Assembly (NCBI GenBank): GCA_943328975.2
Contig: CALQCC020000014.1
Span: forward strand, 15,445 to 79,444
Source of the DNA: Bordetella parapertussis
GTDB lineage: Bacteria; Acidobacteriota; Terriglobia; Bryobacterales; Bryobacteraceae
Reading direction: 5' to 3'
Length of the DNA: 64,000 bases
Part shown: positions 28,979 to 46,870 of the stretch, in pieces
How positions within the stretch are numbered: position 1 is the first letter of the stretch
Layout of the letters: each line of letters begins with the position of its first letter
Program-made: the position numbers and the translations under genes
The notes under the pieces: model-generated
The model's database searches: none
Told to the model about the DNA's origin: nothing
What the model saw: the letters and a program-made list of their open reading frames with translations, nothing else

Positions 28979-31174
28979 TCAAGATGCTTGCGCTAACTCC
29001 AACGCCCGAGCTTTTACGCCCCGCAGATCCAACTTGCCCGTCCCGAGCACCGGAAGCGACTCCACGAAGTGGATATCGGCCTGCTTCGGAATCCACAGCT
29101 TCGGCAGATCCGTCTCCCCCAGCCGCCGCCACACTTCCTCCGGCGTAACGTCCTGCGCGGTGTACAGCAGCGCCAGGCGCTCGCCCTTACGTTCATCGGG
29201 CAGACCCGTCACCGCGCACGGAGCGTCACCCATGAGCGCGCTGGCGACCTCCTCGATCTTCAAGTGGGGCACCATCTCGCCGCCGATCTTCGAGAACCGA
29301 GCGAGCCGGTCGGTGATGCGGATGAAGCCGTCTTCGTCCACGGTCGCGATGTCTCCGGTGATGTACCAGCCGTCATGCATGGCCTCGGCGGTCTTCTCCG
29401 GCTGATTCAGATACCCGAGCATCACGTTCGGACCGCGGATCTCCAGCAAGCCCTCATGGCCGATGGGGAGCGGCTCCTGTGTATCGATATCCACCGTGCG
29501 CGCCGAGACGCCGGGCAGCGGCAGACCAACGGTACCGATCTTGTTGCCCACCTGTGTCTCGTGCGAAAACGAAAAGTCGGGCGTGTTGATCGCGACCACA
29601 GGCGATAGCTCCGTGCAGCCGTAACCTTCGAGCAGCTCTTTGCCGAAGACCTCGAAAAACTCCTTGCGTAGCGCGTCGCGCAATTTCTCCGCCCCCACCA
29701 CGCAGTAGCGTAGAGAGGCGAACTGCTCCGCCGTGCACTTGCGCGTGAACGTGCCGCAGAACGTGGGAGTCGCCAGCAGGAACGTGCCCTTGTATTTGTG
29801 GACCAACTCGCCGATGGCTTTGGCATCGGTTGGCACTGGATGATAGACCACGCCGCAGCCGGCCAGGATCGGCAACCACACAGTGGCCATGAAGCCGAAA
29901 GAGTGGAAGAACGGCAGGATGCCGATGATGCGATCCTTGTCATCCAGATTGAATACTTCCAGCACCGCGTCGCAATTCGAAACGATATTGAAGTGCGACA
30001 GCATCACTCCCTTGGGGACGCCGGTGCTGCCGCTGGAGAATATAACGGTGGCGAGCGAATCCGGCTTGACCGACGGCCGCAACCACGATTGCGGTAGGAG
30101 ACGCGCCTTCAGCAGCGCAACCAACTTCGCGGCACTACCGAATTCCTTCAACAAGTCTTCGATATAGACGGCTCCGGCCGGTTCGTCGAGTTTAGCCTTG
30201 GCGAGGAAGGTCTTCGACGTGATGACAGTGCGGATCTTGCACTGCGCCACGGCGGCATCCATCGCATCTTTACCCGCGGTGAAATTCAGATTCACGGGAG
30301 TCTTGCCTGCCAGCGATACACCCAAATTCGCCAGTGCGCCGCCGACGGTAGCCGGCATCAGGACCCCGACCATCGCGTCCTGTCCCGTGCGCTGGCGAAC
30401 CACGCCAGCCAACAGCAACGATGCGATGAGTGCCTTCCCGTATGTCAGCTCGCGGCCGGTTGAATCCGCCATCGCGAACTTACCCCAATTCGCGCGCGCC
30501 GTTCGGATGAAGCGGGCGGGCAGAGTGTCGCCGGCTTCCGCACGCAGAGGGAAGGAATCGCTCGCGAGCTCCGCCGACGCGTGCCGGACCACAGGCGCGG
30601 GTGTTGAGGCTGGCAGAGGCTTCCCGAATCGCACGGTAACAGGCCAGCGCCACCGCGAAGGCCAGCCGCCGAAGCCGCCGCCCTCGAAACTGAACAACCC
30701 GCCCCACACGCGATCCAAATTGGCTGGGATCACGGGAACGTCCAGACCCGCCAGCACCTTTTCCATCCCACGCTTGAACGGTAGTAAATGACCCGTGCGA
30801 CTCACCGAGCCTTCCGCGAAGATACACACCACGTGCCCCGCTTCCAGCTCCGCGCGTGCTGCCTTCAAAGCGCCCACCAGATCTCGCGGACCCGACGTCC
30901 CAATCGGGATCGCCTTCAAGGACCGCAGGAACGCTCCGGATACCGGATGTTCATAGTAGGGCCGGAAAATCATAAACCGCACGCGCCGGTGCCGCGCGGC
31001 CCACCCGACGAGAAAACCATCCATCAAGGAGAGGTGATTGGAGATGATCAGCGCAGGGCCGGTCTTCGGAACGTACTCTTTTCCAATGATTCGGAAGCGA
31101 TAAAGCGACAGCACCAGGGCACGGATCCCCAAGCGGACCAACGGAAGAGGGATCTCAAACGGCATAAAAGGCAT
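28979..31174 (-). CDS. Bifunctional lysophospholipid acyltransferase / acyl-(ACP or CoA) synthetase, Aas-like
   Basis: 731 aa. The N-terminal PlsC-type HX4D motif (NHLSLMDG), AMP-binding motif FSSGSTGVPKGV and C-terminal GDIA..DEDGF..I.DR give the same architecture and size as E. coli Aas. Confidence 0.8.
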   Translation of the reverse strand: MPFMPFEIPLPLVRLGIRALVLSLYRFRIIGKEYVPKTGPALIISNHLSLMDGFLVGWAARHRRVRFMIFRPYYEHPVSGAFLRSLKAIPIGTSGPRDLVGALKAARAELEAGHVVCIFAEGSVSRTGHLLPFKRGMEKVLAGLDVPVIPANLDRVWGGLFSFEGGGFGGWPSRWRWPVTVRFGKPLPASTPAPVVRHASAELASDSFPLRAEAGDTLPARFIRTARANWGKFAMADSTGRELTYGKALIASLLLAGVVRQRTGQDAMVGVLMPATVGGALANLGVSLAGKTPVNLNFTAGKDAMDAAVAQCKIRTVITSKTFLAKAKLDEPAGAVYIEDLLKEFGSAAKLVALLKARLLPQSWLRPSVKPDSLATVIFSSGSTGVPKGVMLSHFNIVSNCDAVLEVFNLDDKDRIIGILPFFHSFGFMATVWLPILAGCGVVYHPVPTDAKAIGELVHKYKGTFLLATPTFCGTFTRKCTAEQFASLRYCVVGAEKLRDALRKEFFEVFGKELLEGYGCTELSPVVAINTPDFSFSHETQVGNKIGTVGLPLPGVSARTVDIDTQEPLPIGHEGLLEIRGPNVMLGYLNQPEKTAEAMHDGWYITGDIATVDEDGFIRITDRLARFSKIGGEMVPHLKIEEVASALMGDAPCAVTGLPDERKGERLALLYTAQDVTPEEVWRRLGETDLPKLWIPKQADIHFVESLPVLGTGKLDLRGVKARALELAQAS

Positions 31175-32873: not shown

Positions 32874-33746
32874 TTGTTGAAATCCACGTTTTGGATTGGT
32901 TCGCTATTATTGTGTTCGCTCGCAGCAGGCCAACAGCCGGCCCAGCAGGCTCCGCCGCCGACCCCGGCTCCTGCCCCGGCCACCACGAAGCCCGCGCCTG
33001 TTCCGCAAGCTGCGCCACCTCGTGAAGGTATTGAGGACATGTTTTCCATCAGCGCGTTTTACTGGCGGCCGAACGTCGGCCAACCCGGTTTCCGCGCTGG
33101 AAAATTCGTCGCTGACCCCACATCGGGATTTCTGGACTTCCCCAGTAATCCCAATCGCGCCAACGGAGCCATGATCACCTTCCCCACCGGTGGCTTCAAT
33201 CGTCTGGAGATCGGCTACTGGCGCGTCAATGATTCCGGCGACGTCCGCGCTCCAGCGAAGTTGGCGATGTTCGGAGCGAATATTCCGGCCAACGGCCTAC
33301 TCAACACCCAATACAAGATCAGCAACATCCGCGCGTCCTGGAACTATCTATCTTTCCCCGTGCCTGTGTATGATGCCAAGCTGCGCCTGAAGTCATTTTG
33401 GGAAGTGCAGTACACCAAGTTTCTGCCCACTATCGGCTTCCCCGAGATCAAGAACAATCCAGCTCCGATTCAGCCCAAGCAGTCGGTCATCTACCCTGGC
33501 GTCGGCCTCGGACTGGAATACGTGGCTTCGCGCCATTTCCGTCTGGAAGCGCGCGGTTCCGGCATGACCCTGCCCGGGAAATCGGGCTATTACGATGTCG
33601 AAGCCTCCGCCGTGGGGCGCGTCAGCAAGGTGGAGATTTTTGGCGGCATCAAGGGCTTCCACTTCCACACGACGTCAAAGGCTGAGACTTACCTCACCAG
33701 CACAATGTGGGGACCCATGGTGGGTCTGCGCTGGGTATTCCGCTAG
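32874..33746 (+). CDS. Probable outer-membrane beta-barrel protein (hypothetical)
   Basis: TTG start, signal peptide, Pro/Ala-rich linker, then alternating hydrophobic beta-strand pattern ending ...GLRWVFR. Confidence 0.6.
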   Translation: MLKSTFWIGSLLLCSLAAGQQPAQQAPPPTPAPAPATTKPAPVPQAAPPREGIEDMFSISAFYWRPNVGQPGFRAGKFVADPTSGFLDFPSNPNRANGAMITFPTGGFNRLEIGYWRVNDSGDVRAPAKLAMFGANIPANGLLNTQYKISNIRASWNYLSFPVPVYDAKLRLKSFWEVQYTKFLPTIGFPEIKNNPAPIQPKQSVIYPGVGLGLEYVASRHFRLEARGSGMTLPGKSGYYDVEASAVGRVSKVEIFGGIKGFHFHTTSKAETYLTSTMWGPMVGLRWVFR

Positions 33747-34624
33747 ACCAGGCGCGAACGTAGCAGTATCCACATTTTTTCCCAGGTGGGAACGCGGACC
33801 CGTTGCGACAACACGTCGTAATCCGCTGCGATGATTTTGTCGAGCAGGCGCGAGTAAATCCCGATCATCGCGCGCAGCGACGCTCGGCTGCCTGCGTGGA
33901 CCATTCCGACCAGCGGTGCGGATTCCTGATAGTAGGCCCGCGCGCGTTGGGCTTGGAACGCCAACATGTTTCTGAGCGCGGGCGTCAGTGTTTTGCTGCG
34001 AAGCTCCGCAGGAGTAACCCCGAAGCGTGCCAGGTCTTCGGCCGGCCAATAGATGCGGTCGTTTTCAGCATCTTCCCGAACATCCCGCAGGATGTTGGTC
34101 AACTGGAACGCAATACCGCATTTCTCGGCCAGCTTCAATGCCGCGGGTGAGTCGAAACCGAATACGTGGATGATCGTAAGCCCGACCACGCTGGCCACGT
34201 GATAGCAGTAGTCGTACAACTGGTCGAAGGTGTCGATCTTGCGCGGCTCCAGATCCGAACTGACGCCGGTGATCATGTCGTGGAAATATTGGTGCGGGAT
34301 CTTGTAGCGCGCGACGGCATCGGCGAACGCGGGCCATAACGCCGCGGCAGCGGAAGATGACTTTACCGGCGGCTTCCCCGCAAGCGTTGCGGTTAGATCC
34401 GCACTCCAGCCTGCGATGGCTGCGGCCCTATCCGCGATGCCCGCGTCGTCACTCAGATCGTCGCAGTAGCGCATGAACGCGTAGATGGCGCACATGGCTC
34501 GGCGTTGGTCGCGCGACAGCAGCAGGAACGTGACGTAGAAATTCTTGGCCTGGGACCGCGCTACGCCTTCGCAAAAGGCATAGGATTCGTCCACACTGAT
34601 CACAGCACTGATCACGGCGTTCAT
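33743..34624 (-). CDS. hpnD: Presqualene diphosphate synthase (squalene/phytoene synthase family)
   Basis: AKNFYVTFLLLSRDQRRAMCAIYAFMRYCDDLSDD and LTNILRDVREDAENDRIYWP are the two Asp-rich SQS_PSY motifs. Its ATGA start overlaps the hpnC stop. Confidence 0.85.
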   Translation of the reverse strand: MNAVISAVISVDESYAFCEGVARSQAKNFYVTFLLLSRDQRRAMCAIYAFMRYCDDLSDDAGIADRAAAIAGWSADLTATLAGKPPVKSSSAAAALWPAFADAVARYKIPHQYFHDMITGVSSDLEPRKIDTFDQLYDYCYHVASVVGLTIIHVFGFDSPAALKLAEKCGIAFQLTNILRDVREDAENDRIYWPAEDLARFGVTPAELRSKTLTPALRNMLAFQAQRARAYYQESAPLVGMVHAGSRASLRAMIGIYSRLLDKIIAADYDVLSQRVRVPTWEKMWILLRSRLV

Positions 34625-35538
34625 GCTGCCCGTGTAAACGCCCTGCGGCGCAGAGCCCCTATCAGCAATCCGACGCGCTCCAGTTTCGATACCGAGGGGC
34701 GCGAGGTCAGGACGTCGAAGCCTTGCTGCTCAATCTTGTCGAGTACTCGCATTCCACCGCGGCTGAATAGTTCCAGGTCAATCGAGAGGCGACGGTCCAC
34801 GCGATCGGCTAACGGCAGTCCCTTGATGAACAGCGCTCGCGCAACCTCAACAGCTTCACGCATCGCCGCCCGGAAGCGATCGTCGAAGCGCCGCTCAAAA
34901 AGAGCCTCCACCGGATATCTGTGGGCTTCGAGTAAGCCGACAGGGATGTACACGCGATCTTTCAGTAAATCCACGGTCACATCCTGCCAGAAATTTGCGA
35001 GTTGTAGCGCCGTGCATGTCGCATCCGACAACGCGTAACGTTCTTCATCCCGATATCCGCACAAACCCAACACCAAACGTCCCACTGGATTCGCCGAATA
35101 CTTGCAGTAATCGAACAGGTGCTCAAAATCCCGATAGCGCGTCACCGTCTGATCCTGCTCAAACGCGTGAACTAGATCCGCGAACGGAGTGACCGGTAAC
35201 TGGCAACGCTGTGCCGTGCCCTGCAGCGCGACGAACACAGGATGCTTCGGTGGCGCCCCGGCGAACATCGCATGCAGTTCTTCACGCCACCATGCGAGCA
35301 GCCGTAGGCTCTCTGCCGTATCGCCGATCTCGTCGCCTAAATCGTCCGCCCAACGGCAGAACGAATAGACGTTGTAGAAATCCTGATGCAAACGCTTGGG
35401 CAGCAAGAAGCTGACCACCTGAAAATTTTCGTAGTGATGGGTCGCCAGCCAGCGCGTGTATTGGAGCGACTCTTCCAGGGTCCAGACGCGACTCATCGCC
35501 TCGGGCGATGCAAGGAATGCGGTTGGTTGCAGGAACAC
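34621..35538 (-). CDS. hpnC: Hydroxysqualene synthase (squalene synthase HpnC type)
   Basis: THHYENFQVVSFLLPKRLHQDFYNVYSFCRWADDLGDE and LANFWQDVTVDLLKDRVYIP, positioned immediately upstream of hpnD. Confidence 0.85.
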   Translation of the reverse strand: MFLQPTAFLASPEAMSRVWTLEESLQYTRWLATHHYENFQVVSFLLPKRLHQDFYNVYSFCRWADDLGDEIGDTAESLRLLAWWREELHAMFAGAPPKHPVFVALQGTAQRCQLPVTPFADLVHAFEQDQTVTRYRDFEHLFDYCKYSANPVGRLVLGLCGYRDEERYALSDATCTALQLANFWQDVTVDLLKDRVYIPVGLLEAHRYPVEALFERRFDDRFRAAMREAVEVARALFIKGLPLADRVDRRLSIDLELFSRGGMRVLDKIEQQGFDVLTSRPSVSKLERVGLLIGALRRRAFTRAA

Positions 35539-35551
35539 GGGAGTTCCGGGG

Positions 35552-36604
35552 TTACGGAATAATGGCCGTCTTCATGTGGCCGTTATGACTCATCAAGTGC
35601 TGCATGACATCCAGCAAGTTGGTGAGGGGCTCCACACGGTTCACAAAATCCTTGGCCGTGACATAGCCTTGGCTGACTGCAGTCAGGGCTTTCAGGATGA
35701 GCTCCGGAGTGTGATGGAAACTGGCTCGCAGCGTCAGCTCGGAATAGTGCAGCTTGCTGGTATCGACTGGAACCTCGGTGCCCTCGGGGCATCCACCGAA
35801 GAAGTTGACCACGCCACCGCGCCGCAGAAGCTGGATCGCGAGCTGCCATACTTCCGGCAAACCCACGGCTTCAATCACGACATCGGCTCCACGGCCTCCG
35901 GTCAGATTGCGGACGGGCGTGATGACGTCCGCGCCTTCGTTGTTCAAGATCAATTCGTCGGCGCCCATGCCCGCCGCGCGATCCAACTGCGATTGGCGCC
36001 GGCCAATGGCAATCACGCGAGCCTTGTAAACGGCCTTCGCCATCCGGACAAACATCATTCCGATGGGACCCAGCCCGATGATCGCGATCGTATCCCCTGG
36101 CCGAATGCCGGTCTCTTCTAAACCACGCATTACGCAAGCGAGCGGTTCCACCAACGCGGCATCCTGATAGCTGACGTGCGTCGGAATTACGTGGGTGTTC
36201 TTTTCTACAATGCGCGCCGGGATACGAATGTACTCCGCGTACGCACCGTTATTGAAAAGTAGATCCTCGCAGAGATTTTCCTGGCCGCGCAGGCAGTAGA
36301 AACATTTGCTGCACGGAGCGGAGTTCGCCGCTACAACGCGCTGCCCAACTTGAAACTTCGTAACGCCCTCGCCCATCTGAACGATGTCGCCGGCCAATTC
36401 GTGTCCGAACAAAGCCGGCGGACGGATCATGCGAGCGTGGTAGCCGCGGCGAAATACCTTGACGTCCGTCCCACAAGTTAAGGCCGCGCGTACGCGTACT
36501 AACAGGTCGCCGGTGCCAATCTTTGGTACTGCAACGGATTCGATGCGGAGTTCTTCCTTACCGTAAAGAACGGCGGCCGCCATCTGATGGATCGCAAGGT
36601 TCAT
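35552..36604 (-). CDS. Zn-dependent medium-chain dehydrogenase/reductase (polyol/threonine-dehydrogenase-like), copy 2
   Basis: TCGTDVK...FGHELAG (catalytic Zn), CSKCFYCLRGQENLC (structural Zn), IIGLGPIG (Rossmann). Its ATGA start overlaps the stop of copy 1. Confidence 0.85.
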   Translation of the reverse strand: MNLAIHQMAAAVLYGKEELRIESVAVPKIGTGDLLVRVRAALTCGTDVKVFRRGYHARMIRPPALFGHELAGDIVQMGEGVTKFQVGQRVVAANSAPCSKCFYCLRGQENLCEDLLFNNGAYAEYIRIPARIVEKNTHVIPTHVSYQDAALVEPLACVMRGLEETGIRPGDTIAIIGLGPIGMMFVRMAKAVYKARVIAIGRRQSQLDRAAGMGADELILNNEGADVITPVRNLTGGRGADVVIEAVGLPEVWQLAIQLLRRGGVVNFFGGCPEGTEVPVDTSKLHYSELTLRASFHHTPELILKALTAVSQGYVTAKDFVNRVEPLTNLLDVMQHLMSHNGHMKTAIIP

Positions 36605-37707
36605 TGTTGGGGCAATACTACTATCTTTAACGATACCGCATCTGGATGCGAAGCGCGCTCTATCCCGTCACGAATCTGCCCCAGGGGGCAGCGGTGGGTG
36701 ATCAGCTCCTTGACCGGCAAGGCGCCGCTAAACACAAGATTCACTGACTCTTGTTGCAAATCGACCGATGCACTGTAGGATCCCAGCAGCGTCCTTTCGC
36801 CCACGCAAATGTCGGCTCCGGAGATCTCGATCCGCTCCTGCTGCGAAGTTTGGGCGAAGAGCAGGATACGCGCGCCGGGCCGGGAACAGGCTACGGCTTG
36901 CTCCACAATCCCTTTGGCAGAGGCGGCCACCAACACGATATCCGCGCCGCGGCCGTCAGTTATAGATCGAATATGTTGCACAAATGTTTCGTCCCGAGGG
37001 TCGAAAGAAGATTCCGCTCCGAAGTGTAACGCTAGCTCGCGTCGCGTCGCCATGGTGTCTGTAGCAACCACGCGTAGCTTTTCCAACTTGCCCATCATGG
37101 TAAAAATCATGCCGATGGGGCCCTGGCCTAAAACCGCGCACACCTCGCCGGGCTGCGGAGCCACGGCCCTCATCCCCTTGAGGCAGGTATTCACCGGCTC
37201 CACAAAGCTGGCTTGATCAAAAGAGACGCCGTCTGGAATCTTCTCCACGCCGCCTTCGACGATCCAATCCATGACGCGAACATATTGCGCGAACCCGCCA
37301 CCGGCGGGCTCAAATCCAGCGGTGACACCGACCTTCTTATAGACGGCGCACTGCGCGTACAGCTTATGCTCGCAGTAGAAACAAGTGCCACACGGAATGT
37401 GATGGAAGACGATGACGCGGTCGCCCGGCTGAAATTTCGTTACGCTTGCGCCGACGGCAGCTACGACGCCCGCCGTTTCGTGTCCGTAGATACGGGGCGG
37501 CGGCAATAAGTCGTATTCGATCTTTTTCAGGTCAGTGGGGCAAATGCCGCACGCCTCCACGCGGATCAAAATTTCTCCCGCGCCGATCTGCGGAACAGGA
37601 ACCTGCTCAACCCCGATGGCACCCTCGCCGCGATAGACCGCTGCGGCCATTGTTCCCGTGGCGGAAAACACCTCCGCCGTCTCCAAACTAGAATTCGCTG
37701 TCGGCAA
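36601..37707 (-). CDS. Zn-dependent medium-chain dehydrogenase/reductase (polyol/threonine-dehydrogenase-like), copy 1
   Basis: CGICPTDLK...YGHETAG, CGTCFYCEHKLYAQC, VLGQGPIG. An alternative start at 37650 (MAAAVYRG...) would remove the 20-nt overlap with hpnG. Confidence 0.85.
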   Translation of the reverse strand: MPTANSSLETAEVFSATGTMAAAVYRGEGAIGVEQVPVPQIGAGEILIRVEACGICPTDLKKIEYDLLPPPRIYGHETAGVVAAVGASVTKFQPGDRVIVFHHIPCGTCFYCEHKLYAQCAVYKKVGVTAGFEPAGGGFAQYVRVMDWIVEGGVEKIPDGVSFDQASFVEPVNTCLKGMRAVAPQPGEVCAVLGQGPIGMIFTMMGKLEKLRVVATDTMATRRELALHFGAESSFDPRDETFVQHIRSITDGRGADIVLVAASAKGIVEQAVACSRPGARILLFAQTSQQERIEISGADICVGERTLLGSYSASVDLQQESVNLVFSGALPVKELITHRCPLGQIRDGIERASHPDAVSLKIVVLPQQ

Positions 37708-38335
37708 AAAACGCTCCTAACTTTTCCGTGGCCAGTCGGCTATTGCGATCCAGTTGCATCAACTTCGGCAAAACCGTGAACGGCCGCACCAATCCCGCTA
37801 GAGCAATGCGGGTCAATTGAAAGCGCCCTTCCGCATCGCGATACCGATTAAAGTCCAATGGTAAATCTTCCCCGGCGGAATCCGAAACCACGCGCACGGC
37901 GCGGCACGGGACTCCCCATTCGTGAGCCTTAGCCTGCACGGCCGCGAACTCCATCTCTACAACCCGGGCGCCGGTCCGCTGCCACAGTTGCCGCTTCTCG
38001 TCTGCACGAACGGCAACCCGGTCTTCAGACCAAATCTCGCCCTCACCCGCTATGACAATATCACCAATCCGTAGTGCCGGATCAAGTGCGCCGCAAAAAC
38101 CAGTACTGATCACTTCCGTCACGTTCCAGTTGGGAATCACATTGGATGCGAGTGCTTTGTTCACCAACTTCGGTCCCGGCCCATTCGCAATCAGGATCGC
38201 CCGACGGCCGTGCAGCAAGACATCCCTTGCGTAGGCGATATCGGGACAATGCAGAGGGGTGCCTGGACCCACGCGTTTTATCAAACCCGCAAACTCGCGC
38301 TCTTCCGCCGCGACGATCAAGACGCTAGCAGGCAT
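37688..38335 (-). CDS. hpnG: Hopanoid-associated nucleosidase/phosphorylase (PNP_UDP family)
   Basis: The ATG at 38335 (AAGGG RBS) gives MPASVLIVAAEEREFAGL...STGFCGAL...VVEMEFAAV, the MTA/SAH-nucleosidase-like fold. Its context between hpnA and hpnH fits. The Arg-rich N-terminal extension in the track ORF is rejected. Confidence 0.8.
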   Translation of the reverse strand: MPASVLIVAAEEREFAGLIKRVGPGTPLHCPDIAYARDVLLHGRRAILIANGPGPKLVNKALASNVIPNWNVTEVISTGFCGALDPALRIGDIVIAGEGEIWSEDRVAVRADEKRQLWQRTGARVVEMEFAAVQAKAHEWGVPCRAVRVVSDSAGEDLPLDFNRYRDAEGRFQLTRIALAGLVRPFTVLPKLMQLDRNSRLATEKLGAFFADSEF

Positions 38336-38466
38336 TCTTACCCTTTGTGGCGCACGCACTCGTGCGTGCCGTGTCGCCACTCTTGGCGACACCTTGCCAC
38401 GATCGTCCACAGGCCTCGAGAGGAGTCTCGACGCGGCACGCGTAGGCGCGTGCGCCAAGTCCACGC

Positions 38467-39444
38467 TTAGCAGTAGCCATTCGCCTTAAACCATTCCACG
38501 GCACGAGCCAACGCCGCTGCAGCCGGACCTGGAGTGTATCCCAACTCCCGAGCCGCCTTGTCGTGCCGCACCCACATCTTCTTGCGCGCCATCTTCACGC
38601 CGTCCAGCGGAGCGCGCGGTTCCTGCCCTGACACATTCGCCCACGCCGTGGATACAACGCCCGCCGCATACGCTACCGCATATGGAATCTGCACCGAAGG
38701 CGGCTTGCGCCCAGCCACGGGACCCAGCGCCTCAAAGATCTGCCGCAGCGTGAGGTTTTCCGCGCCCAGTATATAGCGCTCCCCGACGCGTCCGCGCTCG
38801 CACGCAGCCAAGTGCCCCTGCGCGACGTCGCGAACATCCACGACGTTGAGCCCCGTATCGAGATACGCCGGCATCGCACCGCGCACGAAGTCGACGATAA
38901 TCTTTCCGGTCGGCGTCGGCTTAAAATCGTGATCGCCCACGGGAGCCGTCGGGTTCACGATCACGACTGGAAATCCTTCGCGCGCGAATTCCAACGCGAC
39001 ATGTTCGGCCAGCAGCTTCGATTCTTTGTACGGCCCCTGCATGTCGGCCCGTTGCGCCACCATGGTTTCATCGCCGATGCCGCCCTGCGGAACCGCAATG
39101 CATCCCACCGTGGACGTGTAGACGAATCGTTCCACCCCGGCCCGCCGAGCCGCGTCGAGCATCGCCCGCGTGCCGTCCACGTTTGAACGGTGCATTTCCT
39201 GCGGATCGCGCGTCCACAACCGATAGTCGGCCGCCACGTGATAGACGGTCGAGCAGCCTGCTACAGCGCGCTGTAAAGATGCGGGATCGCGCAAGTCTCC
39301 CTGGATAGGCTCGACGCCTTCTAGTTCGCGTAGAGCCGCGGGATTGCGTGCCAAGGCACGCACGGATTGTCCGCGATCCAGCAAGGCACGCGCGACATGC
39401 CAGCCGACAAATCCGGTCGCGCCGGTCACTAATGCCGGTTTCAC
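38467..39444 (-). CDS. hpnA: Hopanoid-associated NAD-dependent sugar epimerase/dehydratase-family protein
   Basis: MKPALVTGATGFVGWHVARALLDRGQSVRAL (GxxGxxG) plus the SDR-extended Y..SK motif (PYKESK). Context fits. Confidence 0.85.
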   Translation of the reverse strand: MKPALVTGATGFVGWHVARALLDRGQSVRALARNPAALRELEGVEPIQGDLRDPASLQRAVAGCSTVYHVAADYRLWTRDPQEMHRSNVDGTRAMLDAARRAGVERFVYTSTVGCIAVPQGGIGDETMVAQRADMQGPYKESKLLAEHVALEFAREGFPVVIVNPTAPVGDHDFKPTPTGKIIVDFVRGAMPAYLDTGLNVVDVRDVAQGHLAACERGRVGERYILGAENLTLRQIFEALGPVAGRKPPSVQIPYAVAYAAGVVSTAWANVSGQEPRAPLDGVKMARKKMWVRHDKAARELGYTPGPAAAALARAVEWFKANGYC

Positions 39445-39453
39445 GTTTGGATG

Positions 39454-40569
39454 TTAGCTGATGAGCCAGCTCAGCGTCTTGAACGAATCACTGAACTTCG
39501 CGTTGACGCCGTATGCAGCCGACGGTTCATAGCCGCAGTGCACCATGCATTGTTCGCAACGAGGATCATTGCCGTGACCGTAGTTTTCCCACGGGGTCTT
39601 GGTCATCAAGTCCTCGAAGGTATTGTAGTGGCCGTCCGTGATCAAGTAGCACGGGCCTTTCCAGCCTTTGACGTTATAGGTCGGATTGCCCCATGCGGTG
39701 CAAGGCAGCTCGCGCTCGCCCTTCAAGAAATCCTGATACACAGGAGAAGAGACCAACGGGAAGCGCTTGGAGAATTTCTCAATGTCCTTGAACTTCTCAT
39801 GGATGTCTTCGCGCGTCATGAACAGTTCCTGATCGTTCACTGACGAATATCCGTAGGCGGGAGAGACCGTGTGTCCGTCGACGCCCAACGTTTCCAGCAG
39901 TTCAAACATCGCCCAGATTTCCTTCATGTCCGTCTCGCGATAGACAGTGGTGTTGGTGAACACGCGGAAACCTTTCGACTTGGCATACTTGATGCCTTCG
40001 ATCGCAGTCTTGAAGACGCCTTCGCGTTCCACTGCCAGATCGTGACTCTTTTCCAGACCATCCAGATGAACGTTGAAGACCAAGCCCGGATCTGGCTTGT
40101 ACGCGTCCAGCTTCTTGGTCAGGAACATACCGTTGGTGCACAGCTGAATGTAGCGGCCGCGCTTCAGGATCTCCGATACCAGTTGCGGAAGTTCGGGGTA
40201 GAGGAACGGCTCGCCGCCGCAAATCGAAATCATCGGCGCGCCGCATTCGTCCACTGCGACCAAGCATTGGTCCAGCGTCAAACGGCTACTGATCGACGTT
40301 TCGTATTCGCGAATGCGGCCGCATCCCGTGCAGGTCAAATTGCAGGCGTGGAGCGGCTCCAGCATCATGACCAGCGGGAAGCGCTTGTTGATCATCGGGT
40401 GCGGCTTGCGCTGAGCACCCGCGGACGGAATCTGCGTGTGCACGATGCGAAACGGATTCTTCGCGTCTTCCACTGCGGCCAGGTTCTGCTGCCATTCCGG
40501 TTTCGGTCGCAGCTTGTTCTTGGCGATGTAGGTGGCCATGCTGGCCGCCTGTGTGAGCGGAAATCTCAT
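39454..40569 (-). CDS. hpnH: Adenosylhopane synthase (radical SAM)
   Basis: RFPLVMMLEPLHACNLTCTGCGRI (CxxxCxxC) and the HpnH-typical N-terminus ...YIAKNKLRP. The ATGA overlaps the shc stop. Confidence 0.9.
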   Translation of the reverse strand: MRFPLTQAASMATYIAKNKLRPKPEWQQNLAAVEDAKNPFRIVHTQIPSAGAQRKPHPMINKRFPLVMMLEPLHACNLTCTGCGRIREYETSISSRLTLDQCLVAVDECGAPMISICGGEPFLYPELPQLVSEILKRGRYIQLCTNGMFLTKKLDAYKPDPGLVFNVHLDGLEKSHDLAVEREGVFKTAIEGIKYAKSKGFRVFTNTTVYRETDMKEIWAMFELLETLGVDGHTVSPAYGYSSVNDQELFMTREDIHEKFKDIEKFSKRFPLVSSPVYQDFLKGERELPCTAWGNPTYNVKGWKGPCYLITDGHYNTFEDLMTKTPWENYGHGNDPRCEQCMVHCGYEPSAAYGVNAKFSDSFKTLSWLIS

Positions 40570-42512
40570 TGCGTTGCTCCCTTTGCCTTCCGGTAAGTGG
40601 CTAACGCCAACACCGGGAACGAATTTCGATAGAGGTGATACTGCAAGTAGAACACTTGGGGGAATCCGGTGCCGGTGGACAAGTCTTCGTCCCAGCCTCC
40701 GTCCGCCCTTTGTGTTTTCACCAAATACTCAATGCCTTTGTGCAGACTGCTCGACGTCGTGTCCCCACCCGCGATCAAACCCAACACGGCCCACGCGGTT
40801 TGCGATGGCGTGGAGTGATCCGGCGTGTAAGTATTGTTTGCGTAGCTGGCGCAACTTTCGCCCCAGCCGCCGTCGGCATTCTGGATGGCGCGCAGCCACT
40901 CGCCGGCGCGCAGGATATGCGCCTCGCGATCATCCTCGCCCGACGCGCGCAATCCACGCAACGCCAGATACGTCCCGTAAATGTAGTCGACGCCCCAGCG
41001 TCCATACCAACTGCCGTCGGCTTCCACGGTCTTGCGTAGGAACTCCACGCCGCGCTGCACAGCCGGATGCGAGTTCGGGATGCCGCAGGCCGCCAAGGCC
41101 TCCAGAACGCGTCCCGTGATGTCCGGGCAGGTGGGATCGAGCATCGCGTTGTGGTCGGCGAACGGAACGGAGCTCAAAAAATCCCAGTTGTTGTCGACGT
41201 CGAAAGCGGCCCAACCGCCATCGGAGCCCTGCATCGCGAGCAGCCACTTCACGGCGCGATCCATGCACGCCTTCTGCGCCGCGGCATTCGTAGCCTTGGC
41301 GTGCGCTAAACCCAGCAACACTTGCGCGGTGTCGTCGATGTCGGGATAAAACTCGTTCGCGAATTCAAAATACCAGCCCGAGGGTTCCACGTCAGGACGC
41401 TTGATGCTCCAGTCGCCCTTACTGCGCACTTCCTTTGTCAGCAACCAGTCCGCAGTTTGCTGCAGCGCCGCGGTATTGCTCCCGGCTTCGCCCAACGCAT
41501 GCGCCGCGATCGCGGTATCCCATACCGGCGAGAAACACGGCATGAAGAAAAACTTCTTGTGCCCAGGTTCGTGATCCAAGCCGACGCGATCCACCATCAG
41601 CCGCATAAATTGGTTGGTGGCTTCCACAACATCCGGATGATCCTTCGGGTATCCCAACACATCCAGCGCCATGATGACGTACATCATGGAGGGATAGATC
41701 GCGGCCAGACCCTCGGAGTGCTTGGTGCGTTCCAACATCCACTGCTCGGCGCGCCGGATCGCCTGCGTGCGCAGGCTGCGCGACCCATAGCGTTCCCAGA
41801 ACTTACCCAGCTTGTCGGCCTTGAGAAAGAAGTTGCGCCAGCTCCAGAAGCCCTCGTTGTTCGGGAAGTCCATCGGGACTCCGGGGATGAACAACTCCTG
41901 AATGCTGAAGCCCGCAGGCACAGGCCGCTGGGGATTTGCCGCGTGCAGGATCGACAGAGGAATCACGATGGCGCGCGACCACGATGAGATTTCGTAAATA
42001 AGTTTGCCGAGCAACATCGCTTCGGGCGGCACCGTGGGCGTGAACTCCCGCGGATACATACCGAACAAACTCAAGTTGACCTTGACGTAGCTGTTGGCCG
42101 CCTGAATGCCGCCCAGCGCGATAATCCGCTCCCGCAGCCGAACCAAGTTCGGATCTTCAACGGGGATACCAGCCAGCTTCAGAGCCACGTACGCTTTCGT
42201 GCTCGCGCTGATTTCGCTGGGACCTTTTTCGTAAATGCTGAACCCGCCGTCGGGCAACTGCCGCGCGAGAATCGACTGAGCGGCCTTTTCAATGAGCCCG
42301 CGCGAGGGGGGATTCCAGGGGCCGGTCTTGGGTGGCGTGTGCCGCCACAATTCCAGCAGGATAAAGTCCGATTCCAGCGTGGTGTCCGCCGTAAGATCGC
42401 CCCACCAGAAACCTTCCGTCGAACGGAGACTCAACAAATAGTCAGACGCGCGCCCCATCGCCTGGGTGGAGGCAGTCAAAAGCGCGTCGGCTACTTGGAG
42501 TCGAGGACTCAT
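40566..42512 (-). CDS. shc: Squalene-hopene cyclase
   Basis: 648 aa. Catalytic DIDDTAQ (DxDDTA) motif and multiple QW repeats (DGGW..., ADGGWGE). Confidence 0.95.
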   Translation of the reverse strand: MSPRLQVADALLTASTQAMGRASDYLLSLRSTEGFWWGDLTADTTLESDFILLELWRHTPPKTGPWNPPSRGLIEKAAQSILARQLPDGGFSIYEKGPSEISASTKAYVALKLAGIPVEDPNLVRLRERIIALGGIQAANSYVKVNLSLFGMYPREFTPTVPPEAMLLGKLIYEISSWSRAIVIPLSILHAANPQRPVPAGFSIQELFIPGVPMDFPNNEGFWSWRNFFLKADKLGKFWERYGSRSLRTQAIRRAEQWMLERTKHSEGLAAIYPSMMYVIMALDVLGYPKDHPDVVEATNQFMRLMVDRVGLDHEPGHKKFFFMPCFSPVWDTAIAAHALGEAGSNTAALQQTADWLLTKEVRSKGDWSIKRPDVEPSGWYFEFANEFYPDIDDTAQVLLGLAHAKATNAAAQKACMDRAVKWLLAMQGSDGGWAAFDVDNNWDFLSSVPFADHNAMLDPTCPDITGRVLEALAACGIPNSHPAVQRGVEFLRKTVEADGSWYGRWGVDYIYGTYLALRGLRASGEDDREAHILRAGEWLRAIQNADGGWGESCASYANNTYTPDHSTPSQTAWAVLGLIAGGDTTSSSLHKGIEYLVKTQRADGGWDEDLSTGTGFPQVFYLQYHLYRNSFPVLALATYRKAKGATQ

Positions 42513-43489
42513 ACGCGAGCGGCTTGCGGCGATGCTGTAACGCGCACCAACTCCGCCGGCAAGTTGAAGCGTACGTCCTCTTCCTTTACTTCCATTTCTT
42601 CAAGGGTAGTGTAGCCGCGTTCCTGCAGGGATGCGACTAGCGCCTCTACAAGATTCTCTGGAGCCGACGCGCCAGCAGTCACCGCGACTGTGTTGACGTT
42701 CTCCAGCCATTCGGACTTCACTTCGCTCAGGTCGTCGATCAGATACGAAGGCACGCCCAATTGCTCGCACACTTCCACCAGTCGCCGCGAATTCGAACTG
42801 TTCTGCGAACCCACCACCAACAGGGTCTCGCATAGCGGGGCCACAGCCTTCACCGCCACCTGACGATTTTCCGTGGCGTAACAAATATCCTGCGCCGCTG
42901 GACCTTCAATCTTCGGGAATTTTTCTTTGAGGCGCGCTACGATGTCGCGCGTTTCATCCAGGCTGAGGGTAGTCTGCGTAATGTATCCGACGCGCGACGG
43001 ATCGCTTACTTCCAGGTGCTCCACGTCGTCCACGGTGGAGACGAGTGCCGTGGCTTCCGGTGCTTCGCCCAAGGTGCCGATGACTTCTTCGTGATCTTTG
43101 TGTCCGATCAGGACGATGGTGTAGCCCTGCCTGGCAAACTTCTTGGCTTCCAAGTGGACCTTGGTCACCAGCGGACAAGTTGCGTCGATCACCCGCAGCT
43201 TGCGTTCTTTGGCTTCTTCGCGAACCGAGGGAGCCACTCCATGGGCGCTAAAAATTGCGCGCTCACCGATCGGAACCTCGCTCAATTCCTCGACGAAGAT
43301 GGCTCCAGCCGCGCGAAGTTCTTCCACTACGTGACGGTTATGGACGATCTCCCGGCGGACATAAATTGGCGCCCCGTAAGCACTTAGCGCGATCTTAACA
43401 ACGTCGATCGCCCTTACTACGCCGGCGCAAAAGCCTCGCGGCCTCAGCAGAATGATCTTTTTGGATGCGGAGGCGGCTACGGTGGGCAT
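42509..43489 (-). CDS. ispH: 4-hydroxy-3-methylbut-2-enyl diphosphate reductase
   Basis: RPRGFCAGVVRAIDVV, ...SAHGV..., ATCPLVTKVH and SSNSNRL are classic IspH/LytB blocks. The stop overlaps the shc start. Confidence 0.9.
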   Translation of the reverse strand: MPTVAASASKKIILLRPRGFCAGVVRAIDVVKIALSAYGAPIYVRREIVHNRHVVEELRAAGAIFVEELSEVPIGERAIFSAHGVAPSVREEAKERKLRVIDATCPLVTKVHLEAKKFARQGYTIVLIGHKDHEEVIGTLGEAPEATALVSTVDDVEHLEVSDPSRVGYITQTTLSLDETRDIVARLKEKFPKIEGPAAQDICYATENRQVAVKAVAPLCETLLVVGSQNSSNSRRLVEVCEQLGVPSYLIDDLSEVKSEWLENVNTVAVTAGASAPENLVEALVASLQERGYTTLEEMEVKEEDVRFNLPAELVRVTASPQAARV

Positions 43490-43558: not shown

Positions 43559-44221
43559 CTAGTGCGAAGTTAAGTCCCTCTGAATCGCGTATTTGACTAA
43601 GCCTGCCACGTCGTGAATATCGAGCTTCCGCATCAGACTCGCGCGGTACGTATCGACCGTCTTCGGGCTCAGTTCCAGCCGGGCGGCGATCTCCTTCGCT
43701 CGAACGCCTTCCACCAGGAACGAGAAGACTTGGTATTCGCGCGCGCTCAGTGCGTCGATCGGGTCTTCGGGCGAGGTCTTCGGATTGGACGCGAAAATCT
43801 TGCTCAGTTCCAGTTGCGGCGAGACGTAAACGCTCCCGTCCAGCACCTGCTCGAACGCCTCCAACATCTGCGAGGCAGGCGCGGATTTCAGCAGAAACCC
43901 GCTTACGCCGCAGCGTAGCGCCTCCACCACTGTTTTCCGGTCGCGGCGCGTGGAAAGCACCAGGATCTTGGTCTTGAGCCCGGCGGCTCGCACACGCTTG
44001 ACGATTTCCAGCGTGAACAAATCGACCAGATTCAAGTCCAATACCGCCAGATCTGGCTGATGGCTCTCTATCATCCGCAACGCGGCTACGCCTTCGGAAA
44101 ATTGACCGACGACTTTGTAGTTCAACGTCGCGTTACACAGCGCGGCCAAACCTTCCCTGACCAGCGTCAGATCGTCGGCGAGTAAGACTGAATAAGTTTT
44201 AGGCTCTCGGATAGGGACCAT
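43559..44221 (-). CDS. NarL/FixJ (LuxR-type HTH) response regulator
   Basis: REC domain (VLLADDLTLVREGL...DLAVLDLNL...KILVLS) plus the C-terminal LuxR HTH (LSAREYQVFSFLVEGVRAKEIAARLELSPKTVDTYR). Confidence 0.9.
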   Translation of the reverse strand: MVPIREPKTYSVLLADDLTLVREGLAALCNATLNYKVVGQFSEGVAALRMIESHQPDLAVLDLNLVDLFTLEIVKRVRAAGLKTKILVLSTRRDRKTVVEALRCGVSGFLLKSAPASQMLEAFEQVLDGSVYVSPQLELSKIFASNPKTSPEDPIDALSAREYQVFSFLVEGVRAKEIAARLELSPKTVDTYRASLMRKLDIHDVAGLVKYAIQRDLTSH

Positions 44222-44328: not shown

Positions 44329-44361
44329 AAATTATAAAGGCGGGCCGATCCGCGGCCCGCC
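44329..44361 (-). terminator. Intrinsic terminator after the STAS gene
   Basis: The minus strand reads GGCGGGCC-GCGGATC-GGCCCGCC followed by TTTATAATTT, about 20 nt after the stop at 44382. Confidence 0.6.
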
Positions 44362-44381
44362 CCAGTACCTTACGACCGAAC

Positions 44382-44738: not shown

Positions 44739-45212
44739 TCAGTCAGCAGCTTTTGCTTTGTACTTCACCATTCTAACTTCAGTGCCCGACGGATTCCGCC
44801 GGCCCACCTGAAACTCGTCCATGAACGCCTGCATCATCAGAACGCCGCGTCCGGACTGACGTAGCAGGTTTTCGTCGGCCAAAGGGTCCGGCAACTTGGC
44901 CGTATCGAATCCTTCGCCTTCATCTCCAATCGTAATTTCCAGCCGTTCTGGAGTATGCGATACGGAAAAATGAACTTTTTTGCGTGCGTTGTAGCGGTTT
45001 CCATGGACCACCGCATTCACCATACACTCCCGCAAGGAGATACCGATCTCGTGCTGTTCATCTTCGTCAAAGCCCATTTCCCGGGCTGTGCGCATGACGA
45101 TTTCTTCAGCATGATCCACACTCTCTAGAGTGGATTCGAGTTGCTCCTTTACCTCCGCTGGGGTATGTTTATCCGCCACAACGTGCTCCACGCGACGGCG
45201 CCAGCCAAACAC
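44739..45212 (-). CDS. Anti-sigma regulatory factor Ser/Thr kinase (RsbW/SpoIIAB-like, HATPase_c)
   Basis: N-box LRECMVNAVVHGN and G1 box IGDEGEGFD. 157 aa, directly upstream of the STAS gene. Confidence 0.85.
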   Translation of the reverse strand: MFGWRRRVEHVVADKHTPAEVKEQLESTLESVDHAEEIVMRTAREMGFDEDEQHEIGISLRECMVNAVVHGNRYNARKKVHFSVSHTPERLEITIGDEGEGFDTAKLPDPLADENLLRQSGRGVLMMQAFMDEFQVGRRNPSGTEVRMVKYKAKAAD

Positions 45213-45306
45213 AACAGGGCGCGTAAGCCGCGAGTTCAGTCGAATCGTTACGGTAAACTAGCGAAGGTTTGCTTGTCAAGCGCGAGAGATCCACGGTCCT
45301 CTTTTT

Positions 45307-45954
45307 TTACGCGGGCAGATAGTCAAGCAACGTCGAATAGAAAGACTTCACAAAATCAGTGGCCTGCTGCTCGGCAGCAGTCTCGTTGCGATCGATGATC
45401 GGGATGATCACGCGCACAAGTGCGGTGTCCGTGCGGTTGTAGCGAAGCGCATCCGCCATCACCCAAAACTTGGCCTTGAATTCACCGGCCACCGCCCGAT
45501 CGCGGGATTGGTACCAGTAGAGCACCAAGCTGCGACTGTCACCGTGGGCAATGATGTATCGGTTTACGGTGATAGGCTGGCCACGATTCACATCCACGGA
45601 AATTTCCCGGTCGTCCAGCGGCGTCCACCCCGACCCCGGCAAGCAATTCTTAGGGGAGTGAGGCGCCTTGCCCGTGCGCTGGGAACGAAACCCAGCCACA
45701 AACAGATTGGCTTGGGCATTATTCTTGACGTAGGTTCGGATCATGGTGTCGTCAGCCTTGAGGACATCCATGGTCTCTTTATCAACAAAACCTTCCGCGG
45801 CGAAACTCCATTGGCCCAGCGCCCGAGGCACTTCTGCCAGTGGCCGGCTGTCCGGAATGTTTTCTTCCCGGATGGAGCTATACAGGAGTCCACCCTGGAT
45901 AAGGAGCACCAAACTGGCCACGCGCACGGGCAAGGAATTCATGAACTTAAACAT
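45307..45954 (-). CDS. EpsI-family exosortase-associated protein
   Basis: N-terminal TM, ...LGQW.F..., YWYQSRDRAVAGEFKAKFWVMADAL..NRTDTALVRV is the typical EpsI pattern. 7 nt downstream of the exosortase. Confidence 0.85.
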   Translation of the reverse strand: MFKFMNSLPVRVASLVLLIQGGLLYSSIREENIPDSRPLAEVPRALGQWSFAAEGFVDKETMDVLKADDTMIRTYVKNNAQANLFVAGFRSQRTGKAPHSPKNCLPGSGWTPLDDREISVDVNRGQPITVNRYIIAHGDSRSLVLYWYQSRDRAVAGEFKAKFWVMADALRYNRTDTALVRVIIPIIDRNETAAEQQATDFVKSFYSTLLDYLPA

Positions 45955-45961
45955 AGAACCT

Positions 45962-46870
45962 CTACTCCGCTTCCGTCAGACTGGGTTGCTTCCGGATCCC
46001 ACAAACCCAATTGATGCCCCAATGGGTTAAGGCAAGGAACGCAAAGGCGATTCCAAAAATGACGAATCCTTCGGTTTCATGGAAGATGCCGGTCGCAAGA
46101 TCTGTATCAATCTCACTGAGGATGCCGGTAATCGTCACGCGGCCCGCGTTCGCGATGATCGCGATTGGAATGGTGCAAAAGAACAACGCCCACCGCATCC
46201 AGACCTTGCTATCGAAAAAGTAGGCATAGACCAAGGAAAGGAACGTCAGCATCAACAGACTGCGAATTCCGCTGCACGCCTCAGCCACAGACAACTTCTG
46301 GCTGGCCAACTCCAGAATGTTGCCGTCCCGCAACACCGGAATATTCATCAGCATAAGACAGAATTCGGCCACCTGACTGGCGAACAGCTGCAACGGAAAG
46401 GTGATTTGGTTGTAGATCACCGTTGGAATCGGGATCATGAACGGCAGCAGCAGCAGGGGGAATAGCAACGCTCGGATCACAGCGGTTCCGCCCATAATGA
46501 GCAGCAAACCGAGCAAAGCCTCCAGAAATGCAGTGCGCTGGAGGAACAATTCGGCGCCAAGCATTCCCAAGAAAGCCTGGATGCCGCTCCAAACCAGCAA
46601 GCCCAAACCCCACCAAGCCGGCTTCCAGTCCATGGCCATCAGGGCTTCGCGTCGCTGCCAAATGATGTAGCCGGAAACCAAGGGGACGAAAAAGCCGTGG
46701 CTCACGTCGTCATCGGTCATCCACTGGTCCACCAGCTTTCGCAGGATAGGGAAGTAAGCGGCAATGAGTAGCACTGCAAACCAACTTATGGCTACCCACG
46801 GAAGCGGACGAGCTTCCGCTGTAGATGCGGTTTGCTCGTGCAGTGGCTGTTGCTCAGTCAGCGCATCCAT
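45962..46870 (-). CDS. Exosortase (EpsH/Xrt family) polytopic membrane transpeptidase
   Basis: Multi-TM. Catalytic-type motifs AEACSGIRSL (Cys), IIANAGRV (Arg), IFHETEGF (His). Confidence 0.9.
   Translation of the reverse strand: MDALTEQQPLHEQTASTAEARPLPWVAISWFAVLLIAAYFPILRKLVDQWMTDDDVSHGFFVPLVSGYIIWQRREALMAMDWKPAWWGLGLLVWSGIQAFLGMLGAELFLQRTAFLEALLGLLLIMGGTAVIRALLFPLLLLPFMIPIPTVIYNQITFPLQLFASQVAEFCLMLMNIPVLRDGNILELASQKLSVAEACSGIRSLLMLTFLSLVYAYFFDSKVWMRWALFFCTIPIAIIANAGRVTITGILSEIDTDLATGIFHETEGFVIFGIAFAFLALTHWGINWVCGIRKQPSLTEAE

Follow-up and report, generated by a model that had tools for sequence, protein, structure and literature searches.

A co-evolving pair of zinc-dependent dehydrogenases with opposite predicted cofactor types in the hopanoid operon of Acidobacteriota

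Two adjacent genes on the minus strand, mdrA (36601–37650) and mdrB (35552–36583), were analyzed in a stretch of 64,000 nucleotides from a Bryobacteraceae genome (assembly GCA_943328975.2, contig CALQCC020000014.1, positions 15,445 to 79,444; hereafter the window), where they lie in a hopanoid gene cluster between hpnG and hpnC. To judge by their residues, the encoded proteins form a catalytically intact, co-evolving redox module of two anciently diverged zinc-dependent medium-chain dehydrogenases/reductases (Zn-MDRs), in which MdrA is predicted to use NAD(H) and MdrB NADP(H). In generic terms, such a module would most simply oxidize a hydroxyl/carbonyl substrate with NAD+ and, coupled to this, reduce it with NADPH. 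The module is a robustly fixed and vertically co-inherited part of the hopanoid operon, in the hpnG-to-hpnC interval, in Acidobacteriota of subdivisions 1 and 3 (SD1 and SD3). The original prediction, made from the letters of the window, had put the two genes forward as candidates for the step from ribosylhopane to bacteriohopanetetrol (BHT), or for tailoring of the side chain.

The two genes are ug1 and ug2 of an earlier survey of acidobacterial hopanoid clusters, where ug1 is a gene of unknown function after hpnA-hpnG, and ug2, which precedes hpnC-D-E and has about 350 codons, frequently carries the annotation of a Zn-binding alcohol dehydrogenase (Sinninghe Damste et al. 2017, PMC5462960). 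That survey found ug2 in every SD1 and SD3 genome but not in Chloracidobacterium thermophilum (PMC5462960). The association with hopanoid clusters has been flagged since 2017 and is not new. What is new is the conserved NAD/NADP cofactor split and the co-evolving pairing of the paralogues, a feature unreported before.

Both proteins consist of an ADH_N and an ADH_zinc_N domain (Pfam, above the gathering cut-offs), with scores of 93 and 64 bits in MdrA (349 residues) and 92.5 and 86 bits in MdrB (343 residues from Met8). Coordinates, domains and flanking genes agree with the original reading of two MDR open reading frames (ORFs) on one strand between hpnG and hpnC. The motifs read at that time are also present: each protein has the catalytic zinc ligands Cys/His-Glu/Glu with a GHE motif, a structural Cys4 loop (CGTCFYCEHKLYAQC and CSKCFYCLRGQENLC) and a GxGxxG motif (GQGPIG/GLGPIG). 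The zinc ligands are invariant in 129 orthologues of MdrA (C37/H57/E58/E151 and Cys87/90/93/101) and in 161 orthologues of MdrB (C44/H68/E69/E153 and Cys98/101/104/112). As every catalytic residue is kept in both proteins, a role of one partner as a pseudo-enzyme or regulatory subunit was rejected.

The two proteins differ at the cofactor site. The end of the Rossmann strand β2 bears an aspartate in MdrA (Asp198), as in NAD-type enzymes, and this residue is found in 128 of the 129 orthologues. The corresponding site of MdrB is G201-R202-R203; among its 161 orthologues it reads G/V/A at 201, R/K at 202 and R at 203 in 97%, and an acidic residue essentially never occurs. It aligns with A199-R200, which determines NADP specificity in the ketose reductase 1e3j, and with the S-T-R of 4ej6. 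The split between Asp in MdrA and G/V-K/R-R in MdrB was found in every lineage examined, including pairs located outside hopanoid clusters. Each protein has in addition its own conserved elements, a loop YK..G.T.GFEP.GGGF in MdrA and, where sorbitol dehydrogenase (SDH) has F-R-Y, an invariant FHHTP in MdrB. With only 30% identity to each other, MdrA and MdrB are old paralogues. The combination of opposite, strictly conserved cofactor types with full catalytic sites in both proteins points to two different reactions rather than one.

The conservation of the neighborhood was examined in two sets of loci. The first, obtained by scanning a single genome for each GTDB species, comprises 80 loci with MdrB 65–94% identical, labeled nearly all Bryobacterales, Bryobacteraceae or Solibacteraceae. 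The second, from metagenomes scanned with remoter relatives as seeds, comprises 80 loci with MdrB 50–61% and squalene-hopene cyclase (shc) 45–55% identical. Among the evaluable loci of the first set, mdrA adjoins mdrB in 74/74, hpnA and hpnG are upstream in 68/68, and hpnC/D are downstream in 79/79. In the second set, mdrA adjoins mdrB in 57 of 60 loci, hpnA is upstream in 34 of 38 and hpnC is downstream in 64 of 68. The conserved gene neighborhood that the original prediction had named as a check is thus found in Acidobacteriota, fully in the first lineage and mostly in the second. In the second set the slot between hpnA and mdrA is occupied by a diverged PNP_UDP_1 gene, and hpnE follows hpnD, which agrees with the SD1 organization in the literature. 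The order hpnA-hpnG-mdrA-mdrB-hpnCDE was also found at a further locus (L168).

Co-inheritance was assessed from pairwise distances in 57 loci with complete genes. The distances correlate with those of shc with r = 0.94 for mdrA and r = 0.95 for mdrB, as high as among accepted hopanoid genes, which bears out within Acidobacteriota the co-inheritance that had been proposed as a further check. MdrB is more conserved than the cyclase, with a mean distance of 0.31 against 0.39. The neighbor-joining subtrees of mdrA and mdrB, drawn with no bootstrap, have the same topology, and in the overall tree the partnered sequences form one clade with relatives that have no partner outside it. These mirrored gene trees are the ground for regarding the two genes as a single co-evolving two-enzyme redox module. 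The two genes are separable in places: two metagenome loci, L154 (9278–11029) and L137 (1154–2997), have the order hpnA, a slot of about 800 bp, mdrB, hpnC and hpnD, with mdrA absent; the slot gave a weak hpnG match (28%) in L154 only. The NAD-type partner is thus dispensable in the cluster, and mdrB is the retained one.

Other parts of the cluster vary around the pair. In 22 Bryobacterales loci (L010, L011, L014, L016–L018, L026, L030, L032, L035, L037, L039, L041, L043, L055, L071, L074, L075, L077–L080), hpnH is not found in the slot between shc and hpnA; the remaining cluster is unchanged, including the MDR pair, and hpnH has presumably been relocated elsewhere in these genomes. The gene hpnE, for the FAD-dependent hydroxysqualene reductase, has no match in the whole 64-kb window and is absent from 78 of 80 Bryobacterales loci. 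In 45 loci of the second set (for example L089, 13900–15294) it comes after hpnD, as it does in L168 (9115–10470) and in L170 (12563–13984), an Armatimonadota locus discussed below. A replacement of HpnE by the two MDRs was rejected, since SD1-type loci carry both hpnE and the pair. In one Bryobacterales metagenome-assembled genome (MAG; L064, 11057–12571), hpnC is in two fragments and hpnD is truncated, which a frameshift or an error of assembly could explain.

The most likely start codons were deduced by comparison with the orthologues. The mdrA ORF covers 36601–37707 (368 residues) and extends to a TTG at 37707. The most likely start is the ATG at 37650, as the resulting N-terminus MAAAVYRG is conserved in orthologues and the 349-residue product corresponds to a called gene in public data; mdrA then does not overlap hpnG and is separated from it by 37 nt. 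The mdrB ORF covers 35552–36604 (350 residues) and shares an ATGA (36601–36604) with the mdrA ORF. This ATGA had originally been taken as an overlap of the two genes. It is indeed present in the ORFs, but the mdrB start is most likely the ATG at 36583 (Met8) and not that at 36604: an ATG is found at this position in 137/137 related loci, at a median of 8–11 nt past the mdrA stop, and the ATGA overlap is confined to the closest relatives.

The pair lies within a string of nine genes on the minus strand (33743–43489) in the order ispH, shc, hpnH, hpnA, hpnG-like, mdrA, mdrB, hpnC and hpnD. The identity of the flanking genes was checked with NCBIfam models. Above their cut-offs are ispH (42509–43489; NF002189, 453 bits for a cut-off of 444), shc (40566–42512; TIGR01507, 629 for 431), hpnH, encoding the radical SAM (S-adenosylmethionine) adenosylhopane synthase (39454–40569; TIGR03470, 426 for 225), hpnA, encoding a short-chain dehydrogenase/reductase known as 'hopanoid-associated sugar epimerase' (38467–39444; TIGR03466, 465 for 368), and hpnC, encoding the hydroxysqualene synthase (34621–35538; TIGR03464, 340 for 250). 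The hpnG-like nucleosidase/phosphorylase gene (37688–38464; PNP_UDP_1) has TIGR03468 HpnG as its best match, with 110 bits, below the cut-off of 187, and hpnD, for presqualene diphosphate synthase (33743–34624), scores slightly below its own (TIGR03465, 257 for 279). Both fall under the cut-offs, so that the names HpnG and HpnD rest on best match and position. The hpnC start is 13 nt past the mdrB stop and hpnD overlaps hpnC by 4 nt. Terminator-like sites numbered 9, for 12 expected from shuffled sequence, and none is intergenic within the cluster. With all genes on one strand, gaps of at most 37 nt and no excess of terminator-like sites, it is likely that mdrA and mdrB are co-transcribed with the hopanoid operon. 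This agrees with the transcription unit originally drawn, although the co-transcription itself is still deduced from gene layout.

Further genes surround the string. Directly upstream of ispH is a LuxR-type response regulator gene (43559–44221), preceded by a strong terminator-like hairpin (44337–44363). It was considered as a conserved regulator of the operon and rejected, as its occurrence is limited to the two closest relatives (L001 and L002). Further upstream, 44739–46870 encodes an anti-sigma-type kinase of the HATPase_c_2 family, then an exosortase EpsH with a DUF3485 (EpsI-like) partner. On the other side, a 290-residue ORF on the plus strand (32874–33746) is convergent with hpnD and gave no Pfam match; an ORF 31–78% identical is in the same position in seven closer Bryobacterales loci (L001–L006 and L012). 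The region 28979–31174 encodes a 731-residue fusion of acyltransferase and AMP-binding (acyl-ACP synthetase-like) domains, which resembles Aas lysophospholipid recycling enzymes and adjoins two MacB/FtsX-type permease genes.

MdrA and MdrB belong to the Zn-MDR superfamily and fall outside every characterized subfamily, given their sub-cut-off NCBIfam scores, flat structure matches and own loop and site residues. No NCBIfam hopanoid model matches either protein, as anticipated from the statement that the canonical hpn gene set holds no MDR. No orthology to a characterized enzyme was found by NCBIfam, PDB sequence or Foldseek searches (24–30% identity, below every equivalog cut-off). The nearest relatives of the family are polyol, threonine and cyclitol dehydrogenases. 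The AlphaFold2 model of MdrB (pLDDT 94.5) superimposes to many MDR structures with template modeling (TM) scores of 0.85–0.91; the Foldseek search returned dozens of MDRs with TM of about 0.9 and 24–30% identity, with no single function prominent.

Four named functions were considered and rejected for MdrA and MdrB. The best NCBIfam match, the scyllo-inosose 3-dehydrogenase IolM, scores 169 and 164 bits for a cut-off of 450. L-threonine 3-dehydrogenase (Tdh), an orthology that had been named in advance as one that would speak against a hopanoid role, is far below the cut-offs (TIGR00692, 165 and 142 for 458 bits; NF003808, 158 and 145 for 380), and the neighbors are only hpn genes. Sorbitol/L-iditol 2-dehydrogenase is the automatic JGI name of homologues; MdrB has no CATPP loop, has His-His in place of Arg-Tyr, and is of the NADP type. 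The family TIGR03366, 'HpnZ_proposed', belongs to phosphonate catabolism and not to hopanoids, and scores about 100 bits for a cut-off of 328.

Some functional link of the pair to the hopanoid or squalene pathway in SD1 and SD3 is considered probable. The side chain of BHT is chemically a 5-substituted ribitol, and we favor, with a probability of about 0.35, a reading in which the ribose-derived side chain is the target of the pair, with MdrB as an NADPH reductase of the ribosylhopane aldehyde and MdrA as an NAD+-dependent carbinol dehydrogenase. The substrate would be the C5 side chain built by HpnH and HpnG. MdrB would act as a carbonyl reductase that converts the open-chain ribosylhopane aldehyde to BHT, as suggested by its NADP-type site, the position after hpnG and its retention where mdrA is lost. 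MdrA would oxidize a side-chain carbinol. The combined sequence would resemble the aldose-polyol-ketose order of the 'polyol pathway', or an epimerization by oxidation and reduction. In this scheme we infer what the substrate is, which way each reaction runs and in what order the two follow; the observed part consists of gene anatomy, conservation, synteny and the types of cofactor site. The cell-free reduction described by Bodlenner (2015) reportedly used NADPH. A stricter version, in which the pair is a dedicated side-chain system with MdrB as the ribosylhopane reductase of Acidobacteriota and MdrA re-oxidizing the carbinol to a keto or epimerized bacteriohopanepolyol (BHP), for instance a BHT stereoisomer, is rather unlikely.

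The literature agrees with the original statement that the enzyme for the ribosylhopane-to-BHT step is unassigned: the step is described as unestablished (PMC12583986, 2025) and as 'predicted to be nonenzymatic' (PMC13459092, 2026). The candidacy of the pair gains from synteny, from the vacant step and from the NADP-type site of MdrB, and a role in the pathway is credible but unproven, as its support is guilt by association and there are clear counter-examples. Several observations weigh against the action of the pair on the ribosylhopane side chain. C. thermophilum makes BHT without ug2 (PMC5462960), and near the hpn clusters of 48 BHPD-producing Alphaproteobacteria no candidate genes were seen beyond hpnA/B/L/M (PMC12583986). 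Most BHT producers lack the pair, the Alphaproteobacteria and C. thermophilum among them, and it cannot be the universal solution. One cultured genome of Vicinamibacteria (subdivision 6, SD6), a group in which the pair occurs, has hpnCDE and lacks shc, and tests of SD6 strains revealed no hopanoid production (PMC5462960). The structure search with the MdrB model, being a flat list of MDRs, indicates no substrate, and relative to sorbitol dehydrogenases MdrB has a five-residue deletion at the CATPP polyol loop (alignment with 1e3j).

Loci outside complete hopanoid clusters count on the same side, and both the stand-alone pairs and the linkage to hpnCDE only weaken exclusivity for hopanoids. In a Chthonomonadales MAG (Armatimonadota, L170), the order is mdrA-mdrB-hpnC-hpnD-hpnE, with an extracytoplasmic function (ECF) sigma factor upstream and not hpnA/G. 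In L155, the pair stays with hpnC-D, and hpnA, shc and ispH are inverted 4 kb away. In Omnitrophota (L166, 8883–11957; L167, 27–3044; L081), mdrA-mdrB has no hpn gene within 10 kb. The neighborhood conservation in other phyla, which had also been proposed as a check, is thus partial, with hpnCDE beside the pair in the Armatimonadota MAG but no such gene in Omnitrophota. For Vicinamibacteria, at least 120 clusters reach 82% identity or higher, and two of these carry the name of the class. Here L173 (7656–11044) has QueF-Pro_dh-mdrA-mdrB on the same strand and L153 and L158 have a stand-alone bicistron, all with no hpn gene within 10 kb. The same holds for L105, L171, L172 and P0380, which are stand-alone bicistrons in unrelated contexts. 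The pair is clearly an autonomous module that is not confined to hopanoid clusters.

The neighbors of the stand-alone pairs recur in a lineage-specific manner only, as Peripla_BP_2 in Omnitrophota and as QueF-Pro_dh or Pro_dh in Vicinamibacteria. In Omnitrophota the pair is always followed by a 304-residue Peripla_BP_2 gene (siderophore/cobalamin-type binding protein) to make a three-gene unit, with no ATP-binding cassette (ABC) transporter genes beside it. A Pro_dh-family ORF is also upstream of the pair in L153 (55–5111). In L105 (11064–12607), genes for a SAM methyltransferase and a PEMT/ICMT-like membrane methyltransferase come after the pair, a possible hint that the substrate is a lipid. 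No common theme emerged from a Pfam scan of the neighbors in L105, L152, L153, L158 and L170, which comprise methyltransferases, Pro_dh, OmpA and unknowns. For representative proteins at 45–50% identity the gene context is limited, as they are mostly on contigs of 2–4 kb.

These stand-alone pairs in unrelated contexts of several phyla, together with the universal NAD/NADP split, would also suit a generic sugar, polyol or cyclitol isomerization or epimerization module, in which a small hydroxylated metabolite is oxidized with NAD+ and then reduced with NADPH. Such a role is possible, if somewhat doubtful. In SD1 and SD3 this metabolite might end up as the head group of a hopanoid, or might simply be co-regulated with membrane remodeling, and the hopanoid skeleton would not be the substrate. 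The acidobacterial BHPs are largely non-extractable (PMC5462960), hinting at unusual bound head groups. The best NCBIfam match is the scyllo-inosose 3-dehydrogenase, though far under its cut-off, and a GFO_IDH_MocA gene lies near the pair of L172. The gene for P0132, a protein 46% identical that falls just beyond the clade of partnered sequences, comes after an FGGY sugar kinase gene; on a second contig with the same protein, it is followed by an ORF that reads, by eye and with no family search, as a sugar-binding protein. Its setting looks like that of a catabolic polyol dehydrogenase. Set against this, the genes beside the pair do not consistently include a sugar transporter, kinase or glycosyltransferase, the position between hpnG and hpnC is fixed in roughly 150 loci, and the divergence is in step with that of shc.

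The side of the cluster on which the pair is anchored bears on another proposal, which links the pair, or mdrB at the least, to the making of squalene by HpnC/D/E. In that case the redox chemistry could take place on an isoprenoid alcohol or aldehyde, for example hydroxysqualene, a by-product of the farnesol type or some other lipid derived from squalene. Wherever the cluster exists, mdrB is directly upstream of hpnC, the pair stays with hpnC-D(-E) when apart from hpnA-G (L170 and L155), ug2 was grouped with hpnCDE in 2017 (PMC5462960), and the Vicinamibacteria carry the pair, with the one studied genome having hpnCDE but no shc. The proposal is nevertheless distinctly unlikely, as none of the steps in the three-enzyme squalene route calls for a Zn-MDR, the squalene producers C. 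thermophilum and Proteobacteria do without the pair, and in Vicinamibacteria and Omnitrophota the pair is not beside hpnCDE either. The polar residues at the substrate positions of SDH, FHHTP in MdrB (invariant) and GSYSAS in MdrA (largely conserved), would moreover suit a hydroxylated rather than a hydrocarbon substrate.

Adjacency to hpnG, tight gene coupling and mirrored trees are also what would be seen if both proteins, as a heteromer or redundantly, performed only the reduction of ribosylhopane to BHT, which is the narrow form of the original prediction. This form is very unlikely. Both proteins have full catalytic sites but opposite, strictly conserved cofactor types, a single reduction does not need two enzymes of opposite type, and mdrA is lost from the cluster in two metagenome loci. 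That the pair has no functional link to hopanoids and was kept by inertia after a chance insertion into the operon can hardly be credited: it occurs elsewhere without hpn genes, but its position is the same in two lineages with an identity of only about 50% between their shc proteins, survived the rearrangements that moved hpnH (22 loci) and hpnE, and the purifying selection is stronger on the pair than on shc.

Hopanoids rank among the major membrane lipids of bacteria, and some of the most abundant molecular fossils derive from them. For the conversion of ribosylhopane to BHT, the enzyme has been missing since about 2010–2015, and a conserved and intact dehydrogenase pair directly after hpnG in abundant soil bacteria offers a concrete, clonable two-gene candidate. 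Should the pair be a dedicated side-chain system, its members would be the first enzymes assigned to that part of the pathway, and they would represent a new type of paralogous NAD/NADP-coupled MDR module. Should it tailor or epimerize the side chain, this would bear on the reading of BHT stereoisomers as biomarkers in sediments. If it proves unrelated to hopanoids, a strictly conserved NAD/NADP paralogue pair in at least four phyla would still be a redox module worth assigning.

Among known enzymes, the polyol-dehydrogenase branch is the closest in architecture. SDH (1pl6, 3qe3) and the ketose reductase 1e3j have the same fold as MdrA and MdrB (TM of about 0.9), the catalytic zinc is likewise held by Cys, His and Glu with a second Glu, and the NADP(H)-dependent 1e3j has a non-acidic, Arg-containing NADP site like that of MdrB. 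The identity is only 24–27% and there is no curated family match. MdrB has His-His at the Arg-Tyr of SDH, and both proteins keep the structural Cys4 zinc that mammalian SDH does not. L-threonine 3-dehydrogenase (TIGR00692; 2d8a, 2dfv) is among the best sequence and structure matches and has the structural zinc lobe in common, but is of the NAD type whereas MdrB is of the NADP type, and no kbl partner gene is near mdrA and mdrB. The best PDB sequence match for both proteins (E-values of 1.7e-39 and 1.6e-36) is a putative Zn-binding dehydrogenase from Sinorhizobium meliloti (4ej6/4ejm), about 30% identical and with the S-T-R cofactor site that resembles MdrB; it is itself uncharacterized and adds no functional information. 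Behind it in the PDB sequence search, with similar scores, come threonine, alcohol and sorbitol dehydrogenases. The logic proposed for the pair, an NAD-type and an NADP-type enzyme acting in sequence, has analogues in the polyol pathway (aldose reductase with sorbitol/xylitol dehydrogenase) and in the interconversion of myo- and scyllo-inositol via inosose. The enzymes paired in these conversions usually belong to different families and are not encoded by a co-evolving paralogous gene pair. In the 2017 survey, ug1 and ug2 were treated as parts of separate clusters (C and A) and given no function, ug2 was loosely tied to the squalene genes, and HpnA was proposed for the ribosylhopane-to-BHT step (PMC5462960); the paired, co-evolving NAD/NADP nature of the two proteins and their occurrence outside hopanoid clusters, which that survey does not include, are described here.

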